A stretch of DNA of 64,000 nt from Narcine bancroftii (lineage: Eukaryota). Below the pieces are notes generated by a model. It made no database searches. It had not been told where the DNA came from and saw nothing but the letters and a program-made list of their open reading frames with translations. The stretch covers positions 172,856,001-172,920,000 of the forward strand of contig NC_091474.1 of assembly GCF_036971445.1 (NCBI RefSeq), given 5' to 3'. Below are positions 6,242-56,536 of the stretch, one piece after another (positions within the stretch are counted from its first letter, which is position 1; each line of letters opens with the position of its first letter). Both the position numbers and the translations under genes were made by a program.

Positions 6242-6345
6242 CATTATGTTAATACATAATGACTAATTGATGGATCTTTTAAGTATATATATATATATAT
6301 ATACTTAAAAGATCCATCAATTAGTCATTATGTATTAACATAATG
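6242..6345. repeat. Perfect 104-bp palindrome (42-bp arms around (TA)10)
   Basis: cattatgttaatacataatgactaattgatggatcttttaag + (TA)10 + the exact reverse complement of the left arm. Confidence 0.95.
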
Positions 6346-8150
6346 CAACAGGAGACTGAACTGCATTTTGAGTGAGTTAGTCGGGAATGTGGAGCTAACT
6401 GTTGCAGAATCATGAGTGCTAGTGTGGTTTTGACCACAACTCGAATAGATCAGGGCTTTAAAGATGTTATACCAACATTGTGTGCATTTGTGAGGAGAGG
6501 GTCCTATCTTTATTCTGTTTTCTTTCTTTTCCTTTTTCTTTAAACACCTAGATTAATCAAGATCATTATGAAGTATGTTGTTAATATTATGAAAGTGGGA
6601 GGAGTGGGAGAAGAAGGATGGATGGTCAAAAGATTTAATAAAAGTAATTGATGGTGGGAATATTGAATTTCATTAGCATTAATATTAATGGAATACAGAA
6701 ACCAATAAAATGGAAAAAATATCAATGTAAACGAAAAAAGCAAAAGTGGATATTGATATTTTACAAGAAACACATTTGACAAAAAGAGCATGAAACATTA
6801 ATTGAATGATACTGGCATCTTCATTTAATTCAAAAGCTAGGGATGCAGCAATATTAATACATAAAAAAATTACCAGTAAAAATATTAGACACAACTATAG
6901 ATGCAGTAGGAAATGCAGTAGGTATGTAATGGTCAGTTTTCAAATTTATTCAGAATATTTGACTCTAATGAATGTGTATGTGCCTAATGTAGATGATGGA
7001 AAATTTATATAAGATATATTTATGCAATTATCAAATGCTAAAGGGAAAATTTTATTCGGAGGAATAATTTCATCTTTGATTCAAACTTAGATATATCAGG
7101 TGATAAAATTATTTTAAAAAACTAAAATTTTCATGAATAGATATGTTCAAAGTCTCTGCTCAGCTTTAATCCAGAGTTCAAAAGACTGCATATCAAGCGT
7201 GAGTTCATTCTCATCATTCACCTCTAATTCTCTCAATTTCATTGAAGTAAGAACAAAATATAGGTTACAGATGGCAATTCAATACAATATTATTAAAGAG
7301 GAAAGACTTTTGAGATGTTATGAGACAGCAGATAAAACCTTTTTAGAAACTAATGGTAATTCAATAACAAATAAGTTTATAATATGGGACACGATTAAAT
7401 CATATTTAAGAAGTCAAATAATAAGTTATACTTCTAAAATAAAGAAAAAAAATGAAAAAGTACACCAGTTGGAAAAATATTGAAATTAGAGAAAGAATTA
7501 CATATGCAAGAAAAGATGAGAAAAAAAAAGATTATTGGAAGCAACGCAATTGAGATTAACATAATACAAACCTGCAGGGTAGAAAGGGATATAATGCGAA
7601 CACGGCAGAAGTACTATGAATTCAGTGAAAGAGTTCATAAAATATTAGCATGGCAATTAAAAACTGAACAAGTTTCCAGAAAAATAATTGCAACAAAGAA
7701 AGAAACTGGTCAAGTCACTTACAAGATACAGTGAATAAATAATAATTTTAAGGATTTTTATGAAAAAAGAATCTCTGAAAGATGAAAAAAGAGGAATATT
7801 TACAACAAGTGAAATTTCCTATGTTAAATACAGATGAAAAATTAGAGTTATTGTGGCGGCACACCACTAGGCAGGAGAACCAGCCCCGCTTTAATCTACG
7901 TGGCGGGGCAGCCAGCCAAAATGGCACCATCGGGGGTTTTCCTTCTTCTCTGCACTAGGCTCAGAAGCCCACACTGGGGGACCACGTGACGCCTGGGTGA
8001 CGTCAGTGCCCCCCAGCGCAGTTCTCAGCCAGGTCTGGGCTGGGAGTATAAGTGCAGCCCAGCAGCCTGCAATAAATCAGTTCTGCTCACTGAGCTCAAC
8101 CCGTCTGGTTGTGTGTGTTCTTTCAGGAGTAGTGTAGCTGCTGCTACAAT

Positions 8151-8163
8151 TGGTGACCCCAAC
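8151..8163 (+). promoter_or_regulatory. Primer-binding site, tRNA-Trp type
   Basis: tggtgaccccaac after a 2-nt spacer following the 5' LTR; matches the tRNA-Trp PBS TGGTGACCCCGAC with one mismatch. Confidence 0.8.
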
Positions 8164-8187
8164 TGGTTCAAATGTCTTTGAACCCAC

Positions 8188-11100
8188 ATGAGCGAACCTG
8201 GGATCAGTGCTATAGCCGTCAAGCTGCCTGAATTCTGGGTTCAGAAGCCGGAGACCTGGTTCGGCCATGCGGAGGCTCAATTTCACCTCTGCCAGATTTC
8301 ATCTGACATGACCAAATTCTACCATGTGGTCGCCGCCCTGGACCAGGCCACCGCCAGACGCATGCTGAACCTCATTCCCGCCGAAGACAAATACGAGACC
8401 ATCAAGCGAGTGTTCACTGGATCCCTCGGACAATACAGGTCCCAGCATGCCACTCGGATGCTGCACCTCGACGCCCTGGAGGACAGTTCCCCAATGGAGC
8501 TGATTGACGAGATGCTCACACTCATGGGTGATCACACCAACTACCCACTCTTCGAGCGCATTTTCCTCGAACATTTGCCTGAGGACATCTGGCCATTACT
8601 GGTCCAAGAGAGCTTTATCGACCCGAGGAAGATCGCTCAGAAGGCCCAAGAGCTAAGGCTCGAGCGATTCCCAGGGGGCTCAGTGGTCCAGCAGGTCACG
8701 AGGCACGGGCACGACCACGCCAAGCAGAGCATCCGGCCCCTGCAGGGGCCACCAAGAGCATAACCAGGAGCATGGCATCCGCTCCAGGCATCTGCTTCTT
8801 CCACCAGCACTGAGGAGCCAAGGTTCGAAAGTGTCATCAGCCCTGCTCGTTCCAGGGAAACGAGCAGGCCATCCGCTATTAATGTCTGTGGCGGCTGGCA
8901 AAAAACACAGCCTCCTCTACCTGCGGGACTCAGTCAGTGACCGGCGGTTCCTCATCGACACTGGGGCCCAGATCAGCGTCATCCTATCCATGGCCATCGA
9001 GTCCAGGAACCGACTTCGAGGACCTCCCCTCCTTGCGGCCAACGCAACAGATATCCAGACGTATGGAGACAAGACAGTCCACTTCCAGATTGGCCGACAA
9101 AAGTTCTCATGGAGGTTCACAGTCTCGTCCCGCCGACCACCATCCTGGGTGCCGACTTCCTCCTCGCCCATGGGCTTCTGGTGGACATTTGGGGAAAGCG
9201 CCTAGTGGACACCCGTACTTTCCAGGCAATTCACCTCGAAGCCTCCTCCACAGAGCAGCCACAGATGGCCACGATCCACATGCCAAGAGATGAGTTCCAG
9301 CGAATCCTGGACGAGTTTCCGACCCTCCTCAAGCCACAGTTCTCTGCTGCCTTGCTGCGCCACAGAGTGTTCCACCACATCCCCACCCAGGGCCCAACGG
9401 TTCATGCCAAGGCACGCCGGCTCCCACCTGACAAGCTCCAAATGGTGAAAGAGGAGTTTTCGCATCTGTTGGAGCTGGGGATCATTTGGCGGTCCAACAG
9501 CCTGTGGGCCTCTCCGCTCCACCTTGTCCCAAAAGCCTCCGGCGGCTGGCGTCCCTGTGGAGTCTATCTACAAGGCGACAGTTCCTGACCATTACTACAT
9601 CCCTCACATACAGGACTTTAAGGCCAACCTGCATGTTGCAAGGGTTTTCTCCAAGGTTGACCTGGTGCGTGGGTATCACCAAATCCTGGTGCATCCTTAG
9701 GACATACCCAAGATGGCCATCATCACCCCCTTCGGCTTGTTCAAATTCCTTCGCATGCCATTCGGGCTCAAGAACGTCGCTCAGACCTTCCAGTGCCTCA
9801 TGGACTCAATGGGCAGGGACCTGGATTTCGTCTTCATTTACTTAGATGACATCCTCGTTGCCAGCAGAGATCATCGGGCGCCACACAAAGCCCACCTGCG
9901 CACCCTCTTCTCCTGGCTGGCCGACTTCGGGCTCACCATCAACCCAGCCAAGTGCTAGTTTGTGAAAGAGTCCATGCAGTTCCTGGGCCATACCATCATG
10001 GCCGCTATGAAGGTCACCACTATCAAGGAGTTCCCACGTCCGGACAGTCTCAAGGGGCTGCAGGAGTTCGTGGGAATGGTTAACTTCTATAACCATTCAT
10101 CCTGGGAGCTGCGCATATCATGCAGCCGCTATTCGCCCTCATCGCAGCCAAGCACAAATCGCTCACCTGGACACCAGAGGCCTGCAGTGCATTCGAGGCC
10201 ACCAAGGACATCCTTGCAAAAGCTACCATGCTCACCCACCCACACATATGGTGCTCTCTGTCAATGCCTCTGCCACAGCCGTTGGTGCCATCCTGGAGCA
10301 GCAGATGAACGGACAATGGAAGCTGCTGGCATGCTTCAGCTGGCTTCACCACCCACCAGAGCGCAAGTATAGTGCTTTTGACTGTGAGTTACTGGACATG
10401 TACCTGGCAGTGCGGCATTTCCGCTATTTCTTGGAGGGGAGGACTTTTATCATCTTCACTGACCACAAACCCCTCACCCAGGCACTTGCGATGACAAAGG
10501 ACCCCTGGTCAGCCTGCCAGCACTGTAACCTCTCCTTCATGTCGGAGTTTACTACCGACATTCGGCACAAGGCGGGGAAGGACAACATGGTTGTCGATGC
10601 ACTCTTGCGACCGCCCATCTGCGCGCTGACGCCCGGCCTCAACTTCAACCAGCTCGCCTGGGACTAGAAGTCTGATGAGGAGATGCGAGCCTTCAGGACT
10701 GCCATCACGAACCTGTGGTTCCATGACCTCCCGACTTCGAGTGGCGGAAGCACCGTCCTGTGTGATGTCTCCATGGGCACCCCGAGGCCAGTGGTTCCCC
10801 AACAGTGGCGCAGGCAAGTCTTCCTTCACATCCATGACCTTTCGCACCCGTCCATCAGGTCCACGGTCCGGATGGTGGCAGAGTGGTTGGTCTGGCACGG
10901 GCTGCGGAAGCAGATCGTGGGCTGGGCCAGAACATGCACCCATTGCCAAATGTCCAAGGTACACAGGCACACCAGGGCGCTCATGCAAGAGTTCGAGCAC
11001 GTCCGGGAACAGTTTAACCACATTCATGTGGATATAGTCGGGCCCTAACCCGTTTCCCGGGGTGACCGTTACCTGTTCACGGTGGTGGACCACACCACTC

Positions 11101-11700
11101 TGTGGCCTGAGGCGATCCCAATGCCAGATGCCTCCATGATCTCCTGCTCCCAAGCGCTGTTGCACGATTAGGTTGCCCGGTTCGGCGTTCCGAATCACCT
11201 CACCAGCGATCAGAGAGACCAGTTCACCTCTGCACTCTGTGCACAGCTCACCAACAGGTTGGGGATCGAGCTACACCGCACCATGGCCTATCACCTGCAA
11301 GCCAATGGACTGGTCAGCGTCTGACCACCACCTTAAGTCAGTACTTATGGCCCACCTCACCGGTCCCGACTGGGTGGACGAACTGCCTTGGGTGTTCCTG
11401 GGCATCTGCTCCACGCCCAAGCAGGATCTGCAGGCGTCATCAGCTGAACTGGTCTACTGCGCACCGCTGGTACTTCCTGGTGAGTTCATCAATGCACCTC
11501 ACGAACCCCAGCGGTCGCCAGACGAGCTGCTTCCCCACCTCTGGGCCCGCTTGGACTCCTTCACACCCCCACCACCACTCAGACATGGCACACGGCCATC
11601 TCACGTCCCCAGCAAGCTGCTTTCCGCAGAATACGTTTTTATTCGGTGGGGCCCGCCCGCGGAACCACTGCAGAGATCTTAAGAGGGTCCAGCATTCAGG
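8188..11700 (+). pseudogene. gag-pol of the Gypsy element, frameshifted with stops
   Basis: ORF fragments 8188-8763, 8831-9205, 9109-9588, 9713-9958, 10248-10667, 10683-11048 and 11173-11682 carry successive gag, PR, RT, RH and IN motifs. Confidence 0.9.
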
Positions 11701-12818
11701 GTCTACGTTCAAGTTGGACATTGGCGGCAGGCGGAAACTGTTTACTGTGGACAGGCTGAAGCCAGCGCTCCTCGACCCCACCGAACCAGTGAATGTGGCC
11801 CAGCCCAAGAAGTGAGGCGCCCAGCTAAAAAGGACATTGGCGCCGGTTCTGGGGGTGGTGGGGCTGTGTGGCAGCACACCACTAGGCAGGCGAACCGACC
11901 CTGCTTTAATCCACGCGGTGGGGCAGCCTGCCAAAATGGTGCCATCGGGGGTTTCCCATTCTTCTCAACACAGAAGCCCACACTGGGGGACCATGTGATG
12001 CCTGGGTGATGTCAGTGCCCCCCAGTGTGGTTCTCAGCCAGGTCCACGCTGGGAGTATAAGTCCAGCCGAGCAGCATGCAATAAATCAGTTCTGCTCACT
12101 GAGCTCAACCTGTCTGATTGTGTGTTCTTTCAGTAGCAGTGTAGCTGCCGCTACATTATCTAATTTTTTTTCTGAGATAGAAGTTTATGAGATTTTGATG
12201 TCATTACAAAACAATAAAGCTCCAGGAGAAGATGGTTTCACCCCTAGAGTTTTATAAAGAATTTAAGGAATTAATTCCTGTATTAATGAGTGTATTAGAT
12301 CAAATGAAAGATGTACATGACTTGCCAGAATCTTTTAAAACAGCATTAATATCAGCATTAAAAAAGGAAAAGATCTTTAACAACCTTCTTCTTATATCAT
12401 TATTGAATATAGATAATAAAATTATATTTAAATTATTAGCTAATTGATTAAGTAAATATTTACCAAAATTAATAAATATGGAACAGACTTTTTATTAAAA
12501 ATAGACAATCTGTAGACAATATAGTAAAATTTTTGAGTTTAATATGTGTAGCACAGAAAGAAAGAAGCAAGCAGTACCGATTGCATTAGATGCAGAAAAA
12601 GCATTTGATAGATTAGAAAGGGACTTTTTATTTAGAGCAGGGGGTCACAAATACAGTACCCACGAGCACCAGGTTACCCGCAGGGACCACGAGTCGCCCA
12701 CGGGCCTGTTCTAAAAATAGCATTAGTCACCAATGAGCTCCATCTAAAATTTTATTTAATTGTGTTGCTATTCTTTTTGAATCACACTTGCATTGATGTA
12801 GATTTGAAAATGAAAATA

Positions 12819-21579: not shown

Positions 21580-24500
21580 TGTAGCGGTGCGCTTGGAGGG
21601 AGTGGGCAGAACTAGCGCTAACAGCTCCCGTCTTGTGACAGCAAGACACAACAGCCTCCTACCTACTGGCAACTAACCACTACAGCCATGAAGCATAATG
21701 ACGCAGCAGCACCCATAGGTCTACTGAGAAGCCCAGGTCTACTCAACGTAGCTACGTCATGAGGACGTTAGCACTTCAGCTGTCATGACGCCAGGTCACA
21801 TATTGTGTGTCTATATCAAGCCTGATAACACTGTGCAGTGCACTGGAATTCACTGGTAGTGTGTTGTGCTGATGGCTGGCTCCACCCCCATCTGCTCACA
21901 TATAACCCTGGTTTCCTGCCTAAACACAGAACCCTTCTGAAGACCACTGTGGGACTCTATCCCCAGTTATAAGCTAATAAAAGCATTTGTTTTTCCCTCC
22001 AGTCATGAGAGCTTTTATTCACGCTACAATTTTATTAGCTTATTCCCTAAATGATACAAGCGCTACACAAGCCAGACATGCTGATGATGAACCCTCTGTC
22101 CCCCAACGTGACTAAGGAGTTCACGTACTAGCTAGACTGCTTCCAGGCCTACCAGATGGCAACCAGAGACATTTTCCACACCGATGAACTCAGGAGATCC
22201 GCACTTGTTTTGAGGGTAGGAACGAAAGGGTATGAAGTCATCAGGGACTGCACTACATATGATGCTGCCATTGAGCTGTTGAAGGCACATTACCTAAAGG
22301 CGCTAAATGACGTACTAGCAAGGAACTGACTTGCTCTACATCACCAACGACCAGGAGAGACCATCGATGATTACCTTCTGGATCTGTGGACGCTATTAAA
22401 AGCCACTAATTTCCCCCTCTCGGCTGAAGCCCAAACAGCTTTTAACTATCTCTGGAATCCAATTGCAAAAACTGCCATGCATGCGGTGGTCGAGAATGTA
22501 CCTTCCCAAGTGGAAAGCGACACTTCAGACGTAGCCCTGGCCACTACCCTCAACTAGACAGGCAGGCTGTTTGCATTTTTTTCGCAGACATTACAAGGCC
22601 ACGAGCTCTGGAACCCATTGGTGGAAAAGGAGGCTCAAGCCATTGTAGAAGCCTTGAGGCACTGGAGACACTACCTGGGTAGTAGGAAATTTACACTCCT
22701 CACTGACCAGTGCTCTGTCGCATTCATGTTTAATAATGTCAAGATAGGAAAAATCAAAAATGAAAAAATGACAAGGTGGAGGATCGAGTTCTCCATCTAC
22801 AATTATGACATTGCCTATCAGCCAGGAGCCCTTAATGACCATCCAGATGCCTTATCCAGAGGAAGCTGTGCCTCTGCACACACTGGCCCACTGTGGTCTC
22901 TGCATAATGAGCTCTGCCATCCAGGGGTTACCCACATGGCTCATTTTGTCAAGGCGCGTAATCTGCCCTACTCCATGGAAGACGTCAGGGAAATGACCAG
23001 GTCTTGCCAGGTCTGTGCGAACTGCAAGCTGCACTTCTACCGCCCCACAAAGATGCATCTGATCAAGTCATCCAGGACTTCTCCCCTCCATGAACAAGAA
23101 CACCTTCTTCCTCTCTATCATTGATGAGTACTCCCGCTTCCTGTTCGCCATTCCATGTCCAGACACATCCACTTCATCAGTCATAAAGGCCCTAGATTCC
23201 ATTTACACCCTGTTCGGGTATCCCAGCTATATTCATAGCGACCAGAGCTATGTCAGTTCCTCATCCAGCATGACTACTAAGGAACAGGCAGTTTGAAAAG
23301 GAGAATGCCACAGTCTGGATGGCTGACAAACTGGCCCTGATGTCAAAAGGTCTTTCAGACTCATGCTGGCAGAAAGTCCTCCCTATGGCAGTCTATTCCA
23401 TCTGGTCGCGGCTATGTACCGCGACCAATGCTACTCCTCACGAGCTTCTATTCAATTTTGAAAGAAGGCCGGTATCAGGAACTACACTCCCAACCTGGCT
23501 CACCACCCCTGGTCCAGTCCTCCTCAGGAAACACACGAGGAGAAGCAAGACCAACCCCCGGTGGAAATGGTGAAAATGATACATGCTAATCCCACATACG
23601 CCTATGTGGAGTACCCGGGTGGCAGGGAGGACACCGTCTCAATCACGGACCTGGCACCTGCCTCAAGTGCCTTGCGAAATATGGAGCTCATTCTTGCCAC
23701 CCCCAGTCAGGACCTCAGGGGATCCGGTTCACGAGGAAAGTGCATCCCCTTCCACTTGAGCTGGAGACCCAGCCCACCTCTCCTACCTCACAAGGGGACC
23801 AGGAGTCCCAAGGAATCCAAGGTTTCTCGGTGCTAAGGTGCTCCACCAAGATCTCCAGACCCCTGGACCACTTAAATTTGTAAATTTGTAAATAAGTGTA
23901 TATTTTTCAACCATTTTTTTCTGGACCCATGTTCTCTGTCTTCATTCACAGTCCCTAAATTCTACAGGAAGGGATGAATGCAGTGAACTGGGATTCACTG
24001 GTAGGGTGTTGTGCTGATGGCTGGCTCCGTCCCCATCTGCTTACATATAACCCTGGTTTCCCACCTAAACCCTGAGCCCTTCTGAAGACTACACTGAGAC
24101 CCTACCCTCAGCTATAAGCTAATAAAAGCATTTGTTCTCCCTCCAGTTGTGAGAGTTTTTATTCACACTACACACTGTAATAAATGCTGCTCTCTTCGCT
24201 GGCTGGCAACTTCAAGTGTGGTCTCGTTATTTCAACATAATAGCATATGAGCACAATCATTATCTGCCACATTGGTGACCCCGACGGGTCTAGCCGGTAG
24301 CTAGACCCTACAACGAACAAGCTCAATGGCATCGTGCCAATGAGCCAGCCATAAATAATGGACACGCTCCATGGCCAAACTCAAATTAATTTGCTACAGC
24401 AACGCACCAATGAGCCACAACAAGCACCTTGCTTGCAGTAACGCTCCAATGAGCCAGGAACAAATGACGGACAGCCTGACCCAACTGAACCTACTTTGGG

Positions 24501-26319
24501 ACTGCTCCAATTGACCGTAGCTACGAATGACTCCAAATCAATCAGTGTCACATCTCAGGACAGCAAATAAATTACCAGGAGGCTAGTTGCTCTTCCCTTC
24601 ACGCTCAACTGAACGAACAGCAAGGGGCATCGTAGAAGGTTTGGAAGTTCAAAAGACTGTTTTACAACCTACTCACTCACTTTGGTGACTTGAGTAGGCC
24701 AAGCTCTTGTCTGGTGTGCCTCATGAACTGCACAACAAGTCTGGCCAACCAGTTGCAAGGTCAGGGGAAGGCTTATCAGCAACATTTTAAACTGTCTGCA
24801 GACATCAAAAGGCTGGGTGATTTTGCTCAACACAGCATAGCAGTAGCGCCTCAGTTTCTCCAGAATGTTACCACATCCAGCGCTCCATTGAGCTGAAGTG
24901 GTTGTTTATCAGCAAGTTGTCTGTAGCTGGAAGCACAGACATTTAAAATTTGCCTGTTTGAACTTTGGGAGGTTTGCATCTCAGCAGCTGTGACCGGAGG
25001 GAGCACCCGCCACCCCCCACCTCCCCACCATGTTTCACCATCCTCCCTCAGGAAGACCACTCAACCTGGGAACAACTAGCAACCCCTCCTTGAGAGAAGA
25101 AGCCTGCAATCCGGGAGACAACTACTTACTCCCCTGAGGCAAGATCACGTGACCCAGGGGGTAGCCAGCCACACCCCCCTCCCATGATGGAAGATTCTGT
25201 GACCCAGGTAGTAACCTGTGAACTAAAGCTGAAAAAAGCCACCTGTCGATGATGCCACTGAGACCTTTTCCTGCCAACAAGGCAGATTGTAATAGGTTTT
25301 CAGTCCCTCGCTCAGCACAACATTGCCTGTCGTTGATGCTGCTGTGACCTTTCCTGCAGACTAGGCAGATAGTACAGGTTTTTCAGTCCCAGCACACTAC
25401 TGATCAGCATAGCACAGCTTACCGACCTGACGGCTAGCCAGTGGACTTCCAGCAGTAATGGACAGTCGCTCTACAGACCACCACCTACCAGCTCCTGTGT
25501 GTCATTGCAGACTTCGGCTGCTACCTGACTTTCTACAGTTAACTTTTTCCTACCAGACTTTGAGATTAGCACTATGGACTCTCATATTTACCAACAACCT
25601 CCTAACAGTATGGACTTTCACTTTTGGTAATGCATCTCAAATGTTTGATAATGTTTTGGATTTCTCATGTGTCTTAACTGTAATTATCTGTAATCAGATT
25701 TTTTGCAACTGCCTGTGGTTACCTTTTGCATACGTTAAGTGTCTCACATGATTCCTACTGTAATTTATTTGTGTTGTCAATAATTGGTTGTGGCTTTCTA
25801 CTTGATTGAGCCCTGTTAGGATGTACAGTACATATCACTTCCTCCCCCAGCAACCTTCATACACGATGCTTCGGCACCGCACCACAAATGGCAAGTCTGC
25901 TCGGTTCTATGGTGGAATGTCCGCACTAATTCGGAACCGCTGAGTCAGTCGGTCGCTTACCGCTGGTTCTGTAGGGAGCTGTGTTGCGGTACACTTGGAG
26001 GGAGTGGGCAAAACCAGAGCTAACAGCTCCTGTCTTGTGACAGCTAGATATAACAGCCTCCTATCTAATGGAATCTAGCCACTACAGCCACGAGGAATAG
26101 TGACTCAGCAGCACCTGTACGTCTACTGAGAAGCCCTGGCCTACTCAACGTAGTTATGTCATGGGGTCGTTAGCACTTCAGATGTCATGACATGTTGTGT
26201 GTCTATATCAAGCCTGATAACACTGTAATAAATGCTTCTCCCTTCGTTAGCTGACAACTTCAGGTGTGATCTCATTATTTCAACATGATGGTGTACGACC
26301 TCAAACATCATCCACCACA
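21580..26319 (+). mobile_element. Non-autonomous LTR retrotransposon with a non-coding interior; 5' LTR interrupted by a Gypsy element
   Basis: LTRs 21580-24271 (split) and 25982-26319, TG...CA; TSD gagt/aagt; PBS tggtgaccccgacg (24273-24286, tRNA-Trp); no gag/pol motifs seen in 24290-25980. Confidence 0.85.
21834..24172 (+). mobile_element. Gypsy element A (no tRNA PBS), PR and RT deleted
   Basis: LTRs 21834-22028 and 23979-24172; perfect 5-bp TSD CACTG. The gag start is joined (~22395) to RNase H (EKEAQAIVEALRHWRHYL) and integrase (HPGVT..C..C, IDEYSRF). Purine tract ggaagggatgaa precedes the 3' LTR. Confidence 0.93.
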
Positions 26320-26659
26320 AAGTATTAATTTAGGGCACATTTCCTGTCTCTGCATGTAGATTACCCCTTTGATCCCTGGTGTCTCTTGTTCCTAATTGTG
26401 GAACAGCCTGGGATTCCCTTTAAGCTTAATTCATGGACTCTTTTATGCTCCCTAACTTCACTGTTAACATCTAACCTGCACAAACTATATTCTTCAGGGG
26501 ACTTGTGACTACATAAATTAAGTCGCTGGAGATATTGAAAGCTGATCGCTGCGAAGAGCCTTTATTCATCATAACAATCAGATAATCTCTTGGGAGATCT
26601 CAGTCGAATCTCTTTTAATTCAAACTTTAATATTTTGAGTATAGGCAGGCAACTTCAAA

Positions 26660-33920: not shown

Positions 33921-33935
33921 AGAGAATATCGTGTG

Positions 33936-36900
33936 TGTGGTGAACTGCTGTACACTTTATTCTGGTTTTGCCCCATCCTGTGGCTGGACCCATAGCTCCT
34001 CCCTCTTGACCCTGTATAAAGGCTCCAACACCGTAACCCCTCCCCAGAAACCCTGCATCACAGCACATGATGACCTTCCAAGTTTATTGTAAATTCTTTT
34101 GAGTTATTGATAGTGCATCGATTTTATTTACAATATTTTTTTTCAATGATGGAACAATTCTTGAAGCCTGATGAGCTGGAGATCGAACCACAATCGGCAG
34201 AAACCTGACTGGTTTAAACTCTGGCTATGCTGCTTTGTGGTCTTCCTACAAAACTTCACCAGAGTCGTGGCTATAGAGGCAAACAAACTGAACCTACCCA
34301 TCTCCCGGGTCGGACATTGAGTGTTCCCGATGATCAGGGACACCTCAGCGCACATGGAGGAAATGAACATACTCAAGGACCAGTACAGGAAGGAAGTTAA
34401 TGAGGTATAAACCAGGCACATGCTGGCTACCCACAGACAGCGACCATAAATCGAGCAACAAGTTCCTTTGTGCCCTGCATGGACTTGCATGAGTGTGCAA
34501 CTTCTAGTCAGTGCTGGCTGCCCAGAACAAGGAGGACATGATCCAGGATGCCTATGCTGCAGGTGTCAGGTCAGACTAAGCGCGCCAGAGGCTACTCGAG
34601 CAGAGAAGTTAGACTTAAGAGGGGTGATCAACCTCATGAAATCGCTGGAGATCACACTCTGTAACATTGATGCATACTCGGCAAATGGCGTGTGGGCCAC
34701 CATCTTGGGACTCAGGTCCACAGCCAGCAGCCCGCTACCACATTCAATAAAGCAAACATACCACAGCTGCAGTATCCCACAAGCACCTGAAGTGCTACTT
34801 CTGTGGCCAACCAAAGCATCCCAAAAGCACTGCTTGGTGAAAGATGCTATGTGTGCAGTGCAAGATAAAAGGGCACTACACGAAGGTATGTCAATTGCAG
34901 CTGCCTTCCAGCTCCAGCGCTGCCGCATGTGCAGCACGGGAGCTGTCATCTTAGCTGCCACCAACTTCATCTTGGATGCAACCAACTCTGGGGACAACTA
35001 CACCACCGCATGGGCACCACCATTATCCTCCCAGACCATGAGTCAACACAGGCCAGACTGTGAACTGACACTAGCCTCTGATGTGCTGGAACAAAACAGT
35101 CCACATCAACCCTTCTGGTCTATGATGGACATCTCAATCTCAATCAACAATCAGGTGACAAGATGCCTTTTTGATAGCGGGAACACTGAGAATTTTATCC
35201 ACCCCAACACGGTGCAGCATCAATCCCTTAAAGAAAAGCCAGTAAGCTATAAAGTTGCCTTGGCCTCAAAGTCCCACTCAGCCAAGATCCGCAGCTACAT
35301 TACCATGACACTGACCATGCAGGGCATGACTTACAGGAACTCTAAACTCTTTATCATACCACAGCTCTGCGCACCAGTGCTGCTGGGGTTGGACTTTCAG
35401 TGCCATCTCAAGAGTGTCACAATGCAATACGATGGTCCCCTGACCCCCCAATAGTCAGCAACCTGTGGTTTATCAGCATGCCACCCCTTCCTCCGCTATC
35501 CCAACCGACACGCGGTTTATCTACTCTCTGTATCGACCTCCCCACCACTGTTCGCGAACCTCACCTCCAACTGTAAACCAGTCACTACAAAAAGCAGACG
35601 ATACAGTGAAGGGGACAGGGCATTTATTAAAGCAAAAATCCGGTGACTACAGAATGAGGGGATCATCGAGCCCAGTACCAGCCTGTGGAGAGCCCAAATA
35701 GTGGTGGTCAAGGGTGGACACAGGATGCCGATTGATTATAGCCAGACTATTAACTGCTATATACAGCTGGATGCGTATACCCTCCCTCACATTGCGAACA
35801 TGGTCAATTAAATTGCCCACTATCATGTCTTTTCCACGATGACCTGAAATCAGTCTACCACCAGCTTCCCACCCATCTGAGGAGAGCCCGTACACCACCT
35901 TTGAGGCAGATGGCCACCTCTACCATTTCCTAAAGGTCTCTGTTTTCCAGCGGAGGGTGGACCAAAATGACCTGCGTGCTGCCTTCCCCTACTTGGATAA
36001 CGTCAAGATCTGTGGCCATCAAGCAATCCAATACCTAGGTATTAGACTACGAATCACCATTTAAATGGCAAACACAAGCAATCCGATACCTAGGTATTAG
36101 ACTAGATAATAATCTAGGCCATCTATACAGATTAGATTATCAGCCATTAATAAAAAAAATTCCAAGATGACTTAGAACAATGGAAAGATTTACCACTAAC
36201 ACTGATAGGAAGGGTTAATTGCATTAAAATGAATATCTTCCCAAGGATACAATACCGATTTCAAGCGTTACCAATTCCCTTAACAGAGAAATTCTTCAAT
36301 GAGCTAAAGAAAATAATAAGGAAATTCTTATGGAAAGGGTGGAAACCGAGGATAGCGCTAGATAAATTAACAGAATGGTACAAACAAGGGGGCTTACAGC
36401 TACCAAACTTAAATAATTATTATAAAGCAGCACAATTAAGATATCTATCAGATTTTTATCAAACAAGGGATAAACCAGATTGGACCAGGTTAGAGCTAGA
36501 TAAAATAGGGGAGAAGGTACCTGAACATATGCTATATAAGTGGGATGAAAAACTGGTGCAACAGGGGAATTCACCAGTACTGCACCATCTGCTCAACATT
36601 TGGAAGAAGATTCACGTAGAAAGGAAAAAAAACAAATTACCAACTTCCAAAATTATTATTGATGCAAAATCAACTAATCCCTTTCACAATAGATAACCTT
36701 TCCTTTAGAGAATGGGAGAGAAAAGGGATCAAAAGAATAGAAAATTGTTTTTTGGGAAATAATTTATTATCTTTTGAACAAATAAAGTACAAATATGGAA
36801 TAACTCACGGTACAATGTTTGCATACCACCAACTGAAAACCTACTTAAAGGACAAATTGGGAAGCGGGCTGAGGTTACCAGAAGGAAGCAGCTTTGAATA

Positions 36901-39613
36901 TGTGATTACAGACACAATGATAATTAAAAGATTTATAACAAGCATGTACATCAAGTTGCAAGAGAAAGAGAATGATGAAATAAGCTGTAAACCCAAAGAA
37001 AAGTGGGAACAGATCTAAACATAAAGATAAAAAATGAAAAATGGGAAAAGCTATGCTCTGGAACTATAAGAAATACAATAAACATGAGGTTATGCATGAT
37101 ACAATATAATTGGTTACACAGGCTATATATCACGCCCCAAAAGTTAAATAAATGGGACACAACAGTATCAGATAGATGTTTTTGCTGTAAGAAGGAAACG
37201 GGAACAACAATACATGCAATTTGGGCATGTGAGAAAGTGGAAAAGTTTTGGGAAGAACTAAATCAGGTATTAAATAAAATTACAAAAAGCCACATACCAA
37301 AATATCCAGAGATCTTTCTTCTAAGTAATATTAGAAGTAAAGAATTAGGCCTCAAACTGGATGAAGCACAAAAAAGATTTATTATGATAACCTTAGCTGT
37401 AGAAAAAAAATGTATAATGTCAACCTGGAAATCAGAAGAGAGCCTGAGAGTACAGCAATGGTACATAGAAATGAATAAATGTATTCCATTGGAAAAAATA
37501 ACATATAATTTAAAAAATAAACTCACATTATTCAAACAAATTTGGGAACCGTACATGGAACACAACAGAGAGGGCCTACCATGGACCTCCACCCCCTAAA
37601 ATGACAGAATGAGAAGAAGACGAAATGAACTGACCCAGTGTGTAAAAGTAGATGACACAATTTTCTTGTTTATTTTCATTGTGTGATGACATTGTTTAAT
37701 GTATCGTATATGTTGAACGTTTAGTGGGTAGGGAGGGGGTTGGGAAGGAGGGAGGGAAGGGAGGGGGGAAAAGGGGAGAAAATGACACTGTATATTCAAG
37801 AAGGAAATGTTTGTATTTTGGTTAATATGGTTCATAGTGTGAAAAATAAAAACATTTTTTAAAAATGGCCATGACCTGCAAGATCATGATGCCAACCTCC
37901 AGAAATTCCTCACAGCAGCTAAAGACCTAAACCTCACCTACAACATCGATAAATATGTTTTCCACACTACCCACCTGTCAATCCTTGGCTGTGTTGTGGA
38001 GAATGGGGTTATTGGCCCCGATCCCAACCCCATGTGCCCTCTGTTGGAGTTCCCCCTTCCCTACAGCCTCAAGGTACTGAAAAGTGCCAGGGGTTCTTTT
38101 CTATTATGCCCGGTGGGTGCCCAATTATGTGGACAAAGCCCACCCCCTTATCCAGTCCACATCCTTCCCCCTGACAAGAGAGGCCCAGGGAACCATTTGA
38201 TGAATAAAAGAGGACTTTGCTAAATCTGCAATGTATGTGGTAGATGAATCTGCCCATTTCAGGTCAAGAGCAACGCAGTCAATTTCACCCTGGCCACCAC
38301 CCTGAACCAGGTAAGTCGGCCAGTGGCCTTTTTCTCCTGTAACCTCCAAGGCCCTGAAATCCAACTCTCCTCCATCGAGAAGGAGGCTCAGGCAATAGTT
38401 GAGGCAGTATGGCACTGGAGGCATTACCTGGCCTGTAGATACTGTACCCTGTTCATGGACCAAAGGACCATGGCATTCATGTTTAACAATAAACAGCGGG
38501 GTAACTATAACTATGATATTCAGTATCGGCCAGGGAAGCTTAACAAGCCCCCAGACTCCCTATCCTGAGGATCATGTGCCAATGTCCAGATAGACTACCT
38601 CAAGATCTTCCACAATGACCTCTGCCACCCAGCTGACACGAGACTTTTCCACTCCATAAAATCTCGTAACCTGCCATACTCCATCAGGGAGGTCAGAGAC
38701 ATGTTGAGGGACTGCTGAGTCTGCGCGGAGTGCAAACTGCACTTCTATCAACCAGATAGGGCACACCTGGTAAAAGCCATATTGTCATTTGAATGCCTGA
38801 GTATAGATTTCAAAGGCCTCCCTCCCCTCAACCAACCACAAAATATATTTCCTCATGGTCATCGATGAGTATTCATGTTTCCCTTTTGCCATCCCTTGCC
38901 CAAACATGACCTCCACCACAGTCATCAACTTGTATACTCTATTTGGGTACCCATCATACATCCACAAGACTGGGGGTTCTTGTTCATGAGCTGCAAGCTG
39001 CACCAATACCAGCAGGGCCACTAGTTATAACCCCCGTGGGAATGGCCAGGTGGTGAGGGAGAATGCCCACCATATGGAAGGTCATCCTCCTTGTCAAGTT
39101 CAGGGGGCTGCCAGTCTCTCACTGGCAAGAGGTCCTTCCCAAGGTACTCCACGCAATCAGGTCACTGCTATGTACTGCCACCAATGCTACCCCGCACAAA
39201 TGAATTTTCTCCTTCCCCAGGAAGTCACCATACCCCCAGCAAGTCGACACAGCGCGGGAGGTCCAGAAAGAATCAACGACTGCAGCTTACAGCAGAGCAC
39301 CCGACTCTCTGTCGGTCTTAATGAAAGACCAGATCGTTGGACAGACTTAACCTCTAAGACTTTGTGCCCCACATCACTTCTCCCAGACAAAAAAAATGGT
39401 GAATATAGTGAACTACTGTACATTCTTTAATCTGGCTCCACCCCATCCTGTGGCTAGACCCGTGGCTCCTCTCTCTTGACCTGTATAAAAGCTCCAACAC
39501 CACAACCCCTCCCCAGAAAGCCTGGTCACAGCATAGGACGACCTTAAAGTTTATTGTAAATAAAAGCCTATAGTTCTGTAACTCTAGTCTTTTGAGTTAT
39601 TGATAGTGCATCA
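33936..39613 (+). mobile_element. Gypsy element B (no tRNA PBS), interrupted by an L1
   Basis: LTRs 33936-34120 (with an internal deletion) and 39404-39613; TSD gtgtg/atgtg. Domains: gag (LKPDELEIEPQS), PR (CLFDSGNTENFI, PVLLGLDFQ), RT (IDYSQTIN, YLDN), RH (EKEAQAIVEAVWHWRHYL) and IN. Confidence 0.92.
36020..37865 (+). mobile_element. 5'-truncated L1 inserted in the RT of Gypsy B
   Basis: 7-bp TSD TGGCCAT (36013-36019, 37866-37872); ORF2 C-terminal ORFs at 36229-37599 (DRCFCCKK..HAIWAC, LEKITY); AATAAA and A-tail. Related to the L1 at 59629-64000. Confidence 0.93.
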
Positions 39614-40063
39614 ATGTGCAAGCAGCAAAGATTTAATTTAACTTGGGCATCATGTTTGGTACAATCCCATGGGGAAAATGGCCTGTTCCAGTACTGTACT
39701 GTTTTATGTTCTATGTAACATTCAGATCCACATCCACACCAACTGAATACGGCTTCAGTACCAGCTGTTATGTTAAATGTCAGTTGTGTAACTCAAGTCA
39801 ACTTATCAAATTCTGATTAAGCACTCCTCCTGGTTTATGGATGAGATTACTTGCAGCTCACTATATTCAGCTTAGGTTACTTTTATTGTTGCCAGTTCTG
39901 CTTGTAGTTTGGTGTGCTCCAGCTTCACACAGCACTTCACTGTTAACTTCCTTTCCACCACTCTGCTTTGTTTCTTGTACTGAATTAATTTCAGGTCACG
40001 TGCCTGAACATAGCATAGTCATCTTTTTCTCTGCCTACTACAGCCATGACAGCAGTTGGCTCC

Positions 40064-51992: not shown

Positions 51993-54900
51993 AACTCTCT
52001 GTACCTGCAGGAAGACCACCTAAGGGGCTGACTCCACCTGGCCTGCTGTCAATCAGCTGACCTGAATATCAACCTGAGCTGGCCCCTCCTGAGCCAGTCA
52101 AATGGGGAGCCACCAAGCCTTGGACTAGTGTTCAGAGTTTTACTGGAATAAAGCCTGTTGTACAGTCTTTAAGTTTTGTGCTTGCTTGCTGCTACCTCAG
52201 CACACCAGAATTTATTCCAGTAAAAATTTTTAAAGAGGGACCATGGAGACGATCTGGAGCCTGGAGATCGACCCCCAACACCCAGATGCCCAGGCATACT
52301 TTAAGATCTGGAAGCACGCGATCGAGGTGATCATCCTAACACAAGCTGAGGCGATCAACACCAACCAGAAACGGCACATGATGCTCCACAATAAGCTGGG
52401 CCCACGAGTTTTCCAGGCCATCAAGAACTGCTCGGACTACAGACCTGCGATGGCTGTACTAGAGAGCATGTACAAGCATCCAACAAATGTGATCTGTGCC
52501 CCGTACCTGCTCAGCACCCAGGTGAGACGGCAGATGCCTATTTGGGGGACCTGCGTGAGCTAGTCTGCCCGTGCCGAACCAAGACTGGAGTGACCCAAGG
52601 GGAAGTGGAGCAACTGATCTGGGATGCCTGCATGTGAGGGCTGCGCTTGAGGAGCGCCCGACAGCAGCTGCTGGAGGAAAGTATGGCCTCACTTACAAGG
52701 ACAATGGAGGTAGTACGCTCCCTGGAGGCTGCAGCTGATCATCATGCCGAGGTCTTTAATGCCCAACTCCCCCAACCCCAGGCCTGGCAGATGGAAATGA
52801 CCGCCGTCGCCAAAGGGTTCTACATGGAAGAGACGATCACAGCTGTCGGTGCAGCTTGCCCCTGCAAGTACTGTGGGTCCTGGAATGTGTCCAACAGGCG
52901 ATCCCACAAATGCTGTCCAGCAAGGAACTTGCCTTGTTCCCAATGGAGGAAGAAAGGCCACATCACAAAGGTGTGCCTTTCCAGGCCCGTTGGAAGTGCA
53001 GCGACCCTCTGCAACCAACTGGGAGCTCTCCCAAACATTGCCACGTGTGAGGACTGGGTAACGCCATTATTCACCCCTCCACTTCCACCCTCACCACTGA
53101 TGTCACTTCCAGCCCAGCCACTGACCCACACAGCTGAAGTGTGCTCACCCCAGGCACCACCATTTTCCTCCCGACAACTTCCACTGCATCGAAGACGTCA
53201 CTTCCACTCGCTCGGATGACATCATCTCTAGCTTCATTGCTGGTCGGTCACCCAACTGCACCAATGCCATGTGCATCCACTGGGCACCGCCATCTTGAGC
53301 CAGCTAGCTCCTGACAGCCACAACACGCTCACATCGCCTATCCAACTCACCCCACACCCTGAAAGGAAGCCGCTGGACGCTACTCGCCACACATCCATCG
53401 GGCAGCAGTGACTCAGTCCCTGAGATGGTCCTAGCGTCCCCTTAAAAGGGGACATTCCCCATGGACTTGGGTGCTCAATGATGGGCATTGCTGTTAATGG
53501 GAAGGTAACAAAATGGCTGTTCAATAGCGGTAGTACTGAGAGCTTAATGAACTAGAATGTTGCCTGGACATTAAAAATCTATCCCACAAACTTTTCCATT
53601 GCTTTCGCAGCCCATGACCACTCCATCATGGCCCTCAGGCGCTGCTCAGTGGAATTGACAGTGGGGGGGAGGTCATACCAAGGGTTCATACTCTTGGTCA
53701 TGCCCCAGCTCTGTGCCCCAGTCCTCTTAGGGCTGGACTTCCAGTGCAACCTCCAAAGTCACATCCTCACCTTTGGCTGCCTCCTTCCCCTACTCGCACT
53801 CCACAGCACACAGCCCTGTGACTGCCCCCAGTTCACCTGCGGCCTCTCCATACTACGGGTAACCCCTTCAGCCCTCTTCAACTGCCTTACATCGTACTAC
53901 AAGCCCATAGCTGCCAAGAGCAAGCGCTAATGCGCGGCCAACATGGCCTTCATTAAGAAGAAGTGAGGCAGCTTCTGGCGGAAGGTATCATACAGCCCAG
54001 CACCAGTCCCTGGAGAGCCCAAGTCCTAGTGGTAAAAGGGAGTAGCAAACCAAGGATGGTCATCGATTATAGCCAGACCATAAACTGGTAACAGCCAACT
54101 GGACGCCTACCCCTACAGCTGACATGGTCTTCTCGACAATTGACTTAAAGCCGACCTGCAGGCCTATCCACGCCCAGGATAAACTTTGAGGCATATGGGT
54201 GCCTCTACCAGTTCTGCCAGGTCATGTTTGGGGTCACTAACGGGGTCTCTGTTTTCCAGCGGGAGATGGACTGCATGGCAGGCCAGCAAAACCTAATAGC
54301 AACCCTCCCTTACTTGGGCAATTCCACCATCTGCAGCCATGACCAGCAGGTCCACGATGACAACCTGGATTGATTTCTCTGGACGGCCAAGGAGCTGAAC
54401 CTCACTTACAACAAAGAGAAGTGCATGTTCAGCACCACCCGCCTCTCCATTCTAGGGTACCTCGTGGAACATGGTATCATCGGTCCTGATCCAGAACGCA
54501 TGCAGCCATTAATGAAACTGCCCCCCCCCCCTATATGATCAATGTCCTCTGCAGGTGCCTTGCGCTTTTCTCCTATTACTCCCAGTGGGTCCCCCGTTTT
54601 TTGGACAAGGTCCGCTCACTGGCCCAAGCCACCACCTTTCCCCTCCCCCCTGAGGTGCAAGCAGCTTTCATTCATATCACCGATGCCACAAAGCATGCAG
54701 TGGATGAGGACACACCATTCCAGGTGGAGTGCGATGCCTGTGATGTTGCTCTCATGGCCATCCTCAACCAAGGGGGCCGACCCATGGCCTTCTTCTCCAG
54801 GTCCCTCCACGGTTCTGAGCTCAGGCACTCCACCATTGAAAAGAAGGCCCAGGCGATCAGGAAAGCAGTCCACCACTGGCACCACTATCTGGCAGACAGG

Positions 54901-56536
54901 AGGTTCACCCTCCTCACCGACCAGCTCATCTTGGCATTCATGCACTGGAGAGACAAGCTGGCCACGTTCAGCTACGACATCCAATATAGAATGGGTAAGT
55001 TCAATGACTCCTCCGATGCCCTGGCCTGGACCTGTGCCACTGTGCAGTCCAACCAACTGCAGGCGCTGCATGACACTTTTTTAATCACCCGGGTGTCATG
55101 CGTCTCTACCATTTTATCAAGTCCCAGAACCTCCCCTTCACCGTCCAAAAGTCTGGACCATGACTGAGGGATGCAGGGTCTGTGCGGAGTGCAAGCTTTG
55201 CTTCTTCTGCCCGCCACAGGCCCATGTCGCCAAGGCCACTCGGCCCTTTGAATGGCTTAGGATTGACTTCAAGGGGCTCCTGCCTACCATGAGCAAGAAC
55301 ATCTACTTCCTCATGGTCGTAGACGAATACTCCCTTTTTCCCTTCACCATCCCTTGCCCTGACACCTCCACAGCCACCGTTATCAGGGTATTAACACAGA
55401 TCTTTACCATGTTCGGATAACCGGCATTCATCCATAGTGATTGGGGGTCCGTTTTCATGAGTGAGGAGCTGCGCCAGTACCTGGCAGTGCGAGGAATTGC
55501 AGCTAGTCGCACGAGGGGCAACGGGCACAAAAACAGGGTGATCTGGAAGGCAGTCCTCCTGGTCCTGAGATCCAGAGTCTGGTCCGTTGACTACTGGCAA
55601 GAGGCCCTCCCTGAGGTTCTCCATGCCATTAAGTCACTCTTGTGCACAGCTACTAATCAAACCCCTCACGAGAGCCTTTTCTCGTTCCCAAGGAAATCGG
55701 TGACTGGGGTCTCCCTCCCAGCTTGGTTCACATCTCCAGGACAGGTACTCCTCCGCAAACACGTGCGAGCCCACAAGTACGACCCGCTGGACAAGCAGGT
55801 GCTCCTCCTCCACACCAATCAGAACTACACCTACGGCAGTTATCCCAGTGACCGTGAAAACACCATCTTGACCATGGATCTGGCACCAGAAGGGGCCCCA
55901 CCCCCTCCCCCCCAGCATCACAACTATCTGGCCAAATCTCCACACCATGGGTACCCTTGGCCCATCCAGGATTTGAGGGCTGACCTCGTCCCTCCGCCCC
56001 TCCAGAGGGCCCCACTCCTAGTGGACCAGACCCACCTGGCCACCCCACCGCGGACAGACATATGGATAGACACTATGCTGCCCACACCAATGCCCGGGCT
56101 ATGCTGGATCCAGTCAACCCTCAGGCAACCATGCCCTCGCCGACCATTGACCAGGAGCCAACCCTGTGACGGTCCCAGAGACTCCGACAGCTGCCAGGCC
56201 GCCTGAATCTATAAATACCACCCAGCACTGTTTTACACATTCCCCTCCCCCCCTACCCTGGACTTAATTTTAAGAAGGGGGTGAATGTGGTGATATGACC
56301 ACCAGCCTACTGCAGGGGGCAATCTCTGTATCTGCAGGAAGACCACCTAAGGGGTTGACTCCACCTGGCCAGCTGTCAATCAGCTGACCTGAATATACAC
56401 CTGAGCCGGCCCCTCCTGAGCCAGTCAAACGGGAAGCCACCAAGGCATGAACTGGTGTTTAGACCTTTACTGAAATATAGCCTGTTGAAAAGTCTTTTGA
56501 GTTTGTGCTTGCTTACTGCTGCCTCAGCGCACCACA
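51993..56536 (+). mobile_element. Gypsy element C (no tRNA PBS), 5' LTR truncated at its 5' end
   Basis: LTRs ~51993-52209 and 56286-56536. Domains: gag (LEIDPQHPDA, CKYCG), PR (PVLLGLDFQ), RT (MVIDYSQTIN, YLGN), RH (EKKAQAI..HWHHYL) and IN (DFKGLLP, VDEYS). PPT gaagggggtgaa. Confidence 0.9.

Follow-up and report, generated by a model that had tools for sequence, protein, structure and literature searches.

A Slot Antisense to the Element's Own LTR as the Probable Primer-Binding Site of an Animal Gypsy Clade

Results and Discussion

The Self-Complementary Slot of Element C

The subject of this work is a decayed Gypsy retrotransposon, here called element C, in a stretch of 64,000 nucleotides (nt) of Narcine bancroftii (contig NC_091474.1, positions 172,856,001 to 172,920,000), which is referred to as the window and whose numbering is used throughout. 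One base past the end of its 5' long terminal repeat (LTR) at 52209 stands a slot (52211-52225) that is the exact 15-nt reverse complement of an LTR segment (52138-52152), just as an earlier note on this DNA had described. Slots that pair with their own LTR recur across the clade of element C, and their two strands change together. It is very likely, taking three self-priming readings jointly, that the primer of reverse transcription is the element's own segment, because no host RNA could track 20 sequences. Among these readings we consider it reasonably probable that the slot is the clade's primer-binding site and that the capped leader of the RNA, cut after AAA, primes in cis by folding back; this version is favoured because two clusters of fossil junctions match the ends of a leader cut in that way.

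Covariation of Slot and LTR

In 50,000 dinucleotide shuffles of the element C LTR, a null model proposed in the earlier note, no match to the slot went beyond 10 nt, a length attained six times, and 15 never occurred. That note had also reported perfect matches in two further elements of the window. The match holds for element A (14/14) as for element C (15/15), while that of element B is perfect only against its 3' LTR (39552-39565), a deletion in the 5' LTR having cut its own match to 10. The three LTRs are otherwise unlike, without an alignable stretch over 19 nt, and all three polypurine tracts (PPTs) end in TGAA, both as had been noted; in most relatives the tract ends in GAA or AAA. The argument that three matches make chance unlikely survives through the shuffles and the covariation, but not as a count of independent events, as A, B and C belong to one clade. 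The evidence is covariation rather than three coincidences.

Genome copies were chosen by gag only, blind to the feature (by gag DNA for family B), and the top 30 loci of each search were taken (150 or 40 matches listed). At least 12 of 14 pairs were kept by 123 of 150 copies over five gag searches: family C 21/30, family A 21/30, family B 22/30, the young family D 30/30 and a mixed set E 29/30. The same threshold was reached by 1/30 copies of a control family (window element at 7852) with an ordinary tRNA-type site starting with TGG, and by 6/540 stretches of shuffled upstream DNA. The complement is thus neither lost from family C nor common in tRNA-primed controls, the two outcomes that the earlier note had named as speaking against it. 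Pairing is perfect in 15 of the 30 family C copies, and old families lose pairs mainly by one-sided changes, the pattern expected once a copy has been inserted. Perfect double changes occur inside family C (L050, L054), and set E holds seven distinct perfect pairs, with the hexamer altered to ATTAAA (L166) or AGTAAA (L176) and the change mirrored in the slot.

Beyond these families, environmental DNA gave 87 contig loci, and the 38 reaching towards gag were examined. A complement at the slot was found in 24, at the other contig end in two more, and with one G-U pair in three loci of a single family; nine had none, eight of them being without a gag start or LTR. Among 21 lineage representatives, picked as positives, 20 have a slot that fits the LTR of the same element over 12-17 nt (mean 13.8), against a mean of 5.0 and a maximum of 11 for other LTRs, and the reverse transcriptases (RTs) of the covarying lineages are merely 44-66% identical to that of family D.

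Across 22 lineages the paired segment measures 11-17 nt; its last bases are AAA in 21, RCC (R, purine) comes next in 18, and CA plus A precede the slot in 20; in element C the terminal CA reads GA at 52209, where sister copies read CA. The segment ends in 17 of the 22 in a hexamer that we take to be a poly(A) signal or a known variant of it. The exceptions end in GTTAAA(A) (4/22) or ACAAAT (1/22), and in two of the four GTTAAA(A) lineages a separate AATAAA follows further downstream and takes no part in the pairing. The paired segment therefore covers the poly(A) signal in most lineages but not in all. The description of the slot in the earlier note as a primer site antisense to the poly(A) signal is right in that the slot behaves as a primer site and AATAAA is used in family D, but the hexamer itself is not the conserved item; the fixed slot is, together with a junction of AAA followed mostly by RCC. 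A second helix is predicted to begin with the bases past AAA more often than in shuffles (mean 0.64 vs 0.29 over the 22 lineages; individually p<=0.05 in 7/22); these statistics overstate independence because the lineages are related.

RNA Ends Read from Retroposed Copies

Four contig sets guessed to be RNA gave no usable start, end or poly(A) joint, and the RNA ends were therefore sought in retroposed copies of element RNA. Seven poly(A)-ended loci of D and E, from at most six events, terminate 16-21 nt past AATAAA, which is the poly(A) signal used in the related family D. One copy (L335) covers 1.17 kb of the genomic 3' end, is truncated on its 5' side and has a 12-nt duplication, and its 3' R carries the same segment. 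In L330 the poly(A) follows the base equivalent to ~52167, a weak match with 17 nt aligned.

The 5' end is given by L328, a full-length copy between 17-bp duplications, which starts at LTR position 141, ~32 nt past a TATA-like box and ~36 nt upstream of the paired segment, with one non-templated G placed first. A non-templated G at the start of a retrocopy is read as the cap. The 240-bp LTR of family D thus has its R at ~141-208 and its paired segment at ~177-192: the start of L328 and the poly(A) ends place the segment inside R and not at the 5' end of the RNA. Over the five groups, most of the scored copies have a TATA-like box 78-88 nt ahead of the primer end. A targeted search for a second capped retrocopy found none among four matches. 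For element C, the TATA spacing and the capped family D retrocopy at the equivalent place point to a start at 52096, and a family C fold-back (L405) jumps adjacent to that predicted site.

One locus, L341 (1300-1560), consists of a full LTR followed by antisense R ending at the start site, with two short jumps that rebuild the CA end and a target duplication of 4 of 5 bases. Having been picked by its start-site pattern, it was left out of all counts.

Fold-Back Fossils of Reverse Transcription

Inserted fold-back products were searched for with patterns made of the LTR end, A, the slot and the continuing antisense R. Exact matches numbered 153, 245 and 9 (~400), against 0 for the same patterns reversed, and 30, 30 and 9 of them (69 loci) were examined. 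Five of six complete family D fold-backs carry 5-bp duplications, showing that integrase inserted them. Plus-strand DNA thus has its ends at the slot, which marks it as the primer site. Additionally, a copy of the slot follows a PPT-preceded 3' LTR in L344 and L373, as expected if the plus strand ran into an attached primer; a tandem element is an alternative.

The ends of the fold-backs fall into two clusters. Of the 45 loci with a partial or unplaced sense LTR piece, 26 have the beginning of that piece no more than 15 nt from the predicted cut (12 of them no more than 5 nt), as compared with 1/45 within 12 nt of the start site. Sixteen independent early stops of the antisense copy were scored: eight lie within 12 nt of the start site and six at positions 45-56, the remaining two being at 32 and at 35 or 71 depending on the family. 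Apparent stops at 103-106 proved to be alignment artefacts of subfamily differences and are uncounted. The two junction clusters match both ends of a leader cut after AAA; rough binomial tests of them (denominator 40, windows post hoc) are indicative only.

Fold-back products also seem to have given rise to other repeats. Tandem arrays with a 278-bp unit, made of the LTR and 42 nt of antisense R, were seen at L361-L364, G000 C9:30112840-30114257 and C11:238647255-238648392, and are a satellite-like repeat born from a fold-back product.

Proposed Mechanism and Its Alternatives

In the mechanism that we favour, the capped leader would fold back in cis onto the slot, and the RNase H of the element, as in Tf1, would probably be what cleaves it between AAA and RCC, leaving a capped primer of 52 nt in family D or 57 nt in family C. 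Minus strong-stop DNA would then comprise U5 and the last 15-17 nt of R and would jump to the 3' R. The slot would be renewed through plus-strand copying of the primer, and this renewal would explain the many double changes. We give about even chances to a second task of the helix, burial of the 5' poly(A) signal in R so that premature polyadenylation is limited; the 3' LTR, having no slot, would keep its signal active. The 5' signal would need silencing because it lies in R and because R-only polyadenylated RNA existed, while the AATAAA outside the helix in L230 and L295 speaks against this task. We tentatively propose, at somewhat less than even chances, that self-priming arose in a widespread animal Gypsy clade independently of that in Tf1 and on a different design, in which a single RNA helix conceals the 5' poly(A) signal before being cut at a conserved helix junction between AAA and RCC, so that a capped leader of ~52-57 nt is released as the primer. 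The price of such a design would be frequent plus-strand fold-back, of which the inverted insertions, in their hundreds, would be the record, marking the two ends of the cleaved RNA.

Several observations weigh against priming by a cut leader. The primer, the cut and the RNA-DNA joint are inferred, none of them having been observed, and the start site rests on one retrocopy (L328). The whole region of element C folds ordinarily (z -0.61), and a leader hairpin upstream of the primer that had seemed conserved by eye failed against shuffles (mean z 0); the relatedness of the lineages, noted above for the second helix, counts here as well. One outside locus (L251) has the gag start and lacks the complement, an unexplained miss. 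As regards the fossils, the junction windows were chosen after the data were seen, the palindrome itself may favour junctions near its loop, and the stop cluster at 45-56 indicates that jump hot spots can be sequence-driven. Furthermore, in 49 of the 69 fold-backs the antisense copy continues beyond the start site as far as the beginning of the LTR, and the LTR piece of L359 reaches the start site. The run-through fits transfer or snap-back onto plus-strand DNA, and equally a primer taken from the 3' end of the RNA.

The last two observations are also what an alternative primer would leave, namely the 3' R of genomic RNA or a short R-only RNA, from which the last ~16 nt and the tail are removed while the 5' template stays uncut. 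A capped R-only RNA exists (L328) and the 3' R carries the segment (L335); nevertheless, we hold this origin to be unlikely. Partial LTR pieces begin near the cut and hardly ever at the cap, and the gathering of half of the early stops at the start site is not predicted by a primer bearing U3. An R-only primer would account for the stops but not for the starts, and a helix formed in cis would presumably need displacing by an identical strand. Less likely still is the plain geometry of Tf1, with a second start at the paired segment and a primer of 14-19 nt that consists of the first RNA bases. The paired lengths of 11-17 nt are Tf1-like, an initiator-like motif stands directly before the segment in several genome families (by eye), and LTRs can have several starts (PMC3601003, in the part consulted). 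Against this stand the only capped copy, which begins well upstream of the segment, and the TATA-like boxes, at the distance from the primer end given above for most scored copies. No early stop lies at the 5' edge of the segment, a position to which the search patterns, needing 7-9 nt beyond it, were blind.

A helix that only hides the 5' poly(A) signal, with priming left to a host RNA fragment or a protein, is improbable in our judgement. It is true that the signal lies in R and is used and that most segments end in the presumed signal hexamer. Moreover, retroviruses of that layout must occlude the signal, HIV-1 doing so by a stem-loop (PMC12789967, in the part consulted). Yet the arm sits exactly where minus-strand synthesis must begin, a tRNA-type site is lacking, a primer from outside would need to fit ~20 different sequences, and two lineages leave AATAAA unpaired; the control family, on the other hand, has a poly(A) hairpin within its LTR that leaves the tRNA site untouched. 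Finally, chance or a functionless relic of an inverted duplication might draw on A/T-rich sequences with a common AAA end, and its probability is negligible: no shuffle exceeded 10 nt, and the covariation, with double changes across lineages whose RTs are so far apart, refutes it.

Structure of Element C and Its Relatives

The features of element C, along with the corresponding parts of elements A and B, are listed in Table 1. The target-site duplication of element C is unreadable because ~35 first bases of the 5' LTR are missing.

Table 1. Features of element C and paired parts of elements A and B in the window.
Feature	Position	Strand	Remarks
5' LTR of element C	51993..52209	+	Left end short by ~35 bases; 88% identity with the 3' LTR
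TATA-like box (inferred)	52065..52070	+	Spacing as in family copies (86-88 nt before primer end, 13/21)
Predicted transcription start	52096	+	A of an initiator-like motif, 31 nt past the TATA-like box
LTR segment pairing with the slot, predicted 3' end of self-primer	52138..52152	+	Exact complement; paired in predicted fold; covaries
Poly(A) signal AATAAA within paired segment	52147-52152	+	From sequence
Remainder of R	52153..52167	+	Predicted cut between 52152 and 52153; predicted poly(A) site near 52167
Single spacer base A, the first to be copied	52210	+	A in 20/22 lineages
Primer-binding slot antisense to LTR segment	52211..52225	+	Without tRNA-type TGG start; family C fold-back fossils
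Single decayed gag-pol	52243..55900	+	From translations; gag, protease, RT, RNase H, integrase; stops and frameshifts
Polypurine tract ending in TGAA	56272..56285	+	Ending common to A and B
3' LTR of element C	56286..56536	+	Own copy of paired segment (56465-56479) has 3 mismatches (decayed)
Segment and slot of element A	21969..22043	+	Slot 22030-22043 vs 21969-21982, 14/14
Segment and slot of element B	34085..34135	+	Slot 34122-34135; 14/14 vs 3' LTR 39552-39565

Element A is nested (window 21580-26320) inside the LTR of another element, whose tRNA-type site lies at ~24273, and element B (33935-39614) is split by a LINE (long interspersed nuclear element) fragment at ~36030-37865. In family A the sequence AATAAAAGC (window 21969-22028) has a 9-nt complement within U5, giving a local hairpin that competes with the slot pairing; weaker local hairpins of the same sort were seen by eye in families B, C and D. 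Elsewhere, at 6242-6345, the window holds a perfect 52-bp inverted repeat without a loop, centred on a TA run.

The RNase H of element C matches the Pfam model, and its RT (53960-54520) groups with a family C copy (L223). A search with the RT gave 882 relatives at E <=1e-20, the named ones from rays, catsharks, a sea anemone and a damselfly. In a quick RT tree of 65 rows, the lineages and element C stand on one side of a long branch and five other Gypsy RTs on the other (SH-aLRT 97). The elements have TG...CA LTR ends, a PPT and the Ty3/Gypsy order protease, RT, RNase H and integrase, their best match among solved structures is the Ty3 Gag-Pol (E 6e-63), and their target duplications are of 5 bp. 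A chromodomain at the integrase end was found in none of 12 scanned proteins and PF00385 in none of the 120 relatives listed, while a chromodomain search of the genome gave 16 matches. To judge from their sequences, A, B, C and ~20 lineages form one chromodomain-less Gypsy clade. A scan of IMG/VR found no relative, and the ESM Atlas gave only generic RT clusters.

Within the clade, 101 of 131 proteins have YxDN as the catalytic motif of the RT and 19 have YxDD, with 11 uncalled, young copies with long open frames being included, so that the clade as a whole seems to tolerate loss of the second aspartate. The slot-positive L252, L264, L241 and L246 have YxDD, which rules out a link of YxDN with self-priming, and a literature search on the YxDN motif found nothing relevant. 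Family D is very young, with at least 150 gag matches at 98-100% identity and many frames of >1,400 codons, and 90 residues of its gag are found unchanged in a protein of the electric ray Narcine bancroftii. Clade elements were also seen in L308-L315, inside contigs filed under bacterial metagenome-assembled genomes, a filing that is probably due to contamination.

Comparison with Known Systems and Significance

Self-primed reverse transcription has, to our knowledge, been shown only in fission-yeast Tf1-type elements. Like Tf1 and Tf2 (S. pombe), Tj1 (S. japonicus) and the Tf1/sushi chromoviruses, the clade has a primer site complementary to its own LTR transcript and not to a tRNA. In the Tf1/sushi group, according to the parts of the sources covered here and below, the primer site matches the element's own LTR transcript and a cut must create the 3' end (PMC7175516, PMC4600332). 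The first 11 bases of Tf1 RNA pair and RNase H cuts between 11 and 12 (PMC7175516), and the 3' end of Tf1 cDNA often still bears the primer site as a single-stranded copy (PMC11042837). Unlike in Tf1, the paired segment of the clade lies inside R (~+37 to +52 in family D), usually covering the poly(A) signal, and the pairing stretch would not be the very 5' end of the RNA, as judged from one capped retrocopy (n=1), the TATA spacing and the early stops. The clade also differs from Tf1/sushi in having no chromodomain (0/12) and mostly a YxDN motif in its RT.

Self-priming has been predicted from LTR complementarity in Tcn1 chromoviruses and in the plant copia elements TAR, Houba and Osr-1 (PMC6317226), which belong to other lineages and hosts and for which the covered part of that source states no overlap with a poly(A) signal. 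As in the HIV-1 polyA hairpin, the clade's poly(A) signal lies in R at both RNA ends and pairing is proposed to silence the 5' copy (PMC12789967), but HIV-1 uses a local hairpin and a tRNA primer, whereas in the clade the pairing arm is the primer site and is found at the 5' end only. In the tRNA-primed control family (L182-L206; window element 7852-12136), an 8-10-nt hairpin between AATAA and U5 was seen inside the LTR in 10/30 copies, and it is a separate, HIV-like poly(A) hairpin. The flatworm elements Saci-2 and lennie are likewise short animal Gypsy elements with one gag-pol frame (PMC12471100). They have, however, 4-bp target duplications and tRNA sites (PMC12471100, PMC4558846), as against the 5-bp duplications and absent TGG-type site of the clade, a separation made from their descriptions.

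The clade may already bear a name among Mag A/B/C, Cigr-1, MolGy1-16 and PolGy; the searched parts of two animal-clade surveys (PMC6238403, PMC8556966) gave no match for primer-site terms. We found no account of this geometry in the literature searched, which excluded Repbase reports and most subscription papers, so that absence from print is not shown. New here are the placing of RNA ends by genomic fossils and the fold-back fossils. The slot provides an annotation rule for a large class of Gypsy elements seemingly without a primer site, and the fold-backs explain a source of palindromic insertions. If the proposed mechanism is true, it would represent a second, animal design of self-priming, that is, another escape of LTR elements from tRNA and from control by tRNA fragments; it would link priming with the long-standing question of how the 5' poly(A) signal is silenced, and it points to one exact bond at which cleavage can be assayed.

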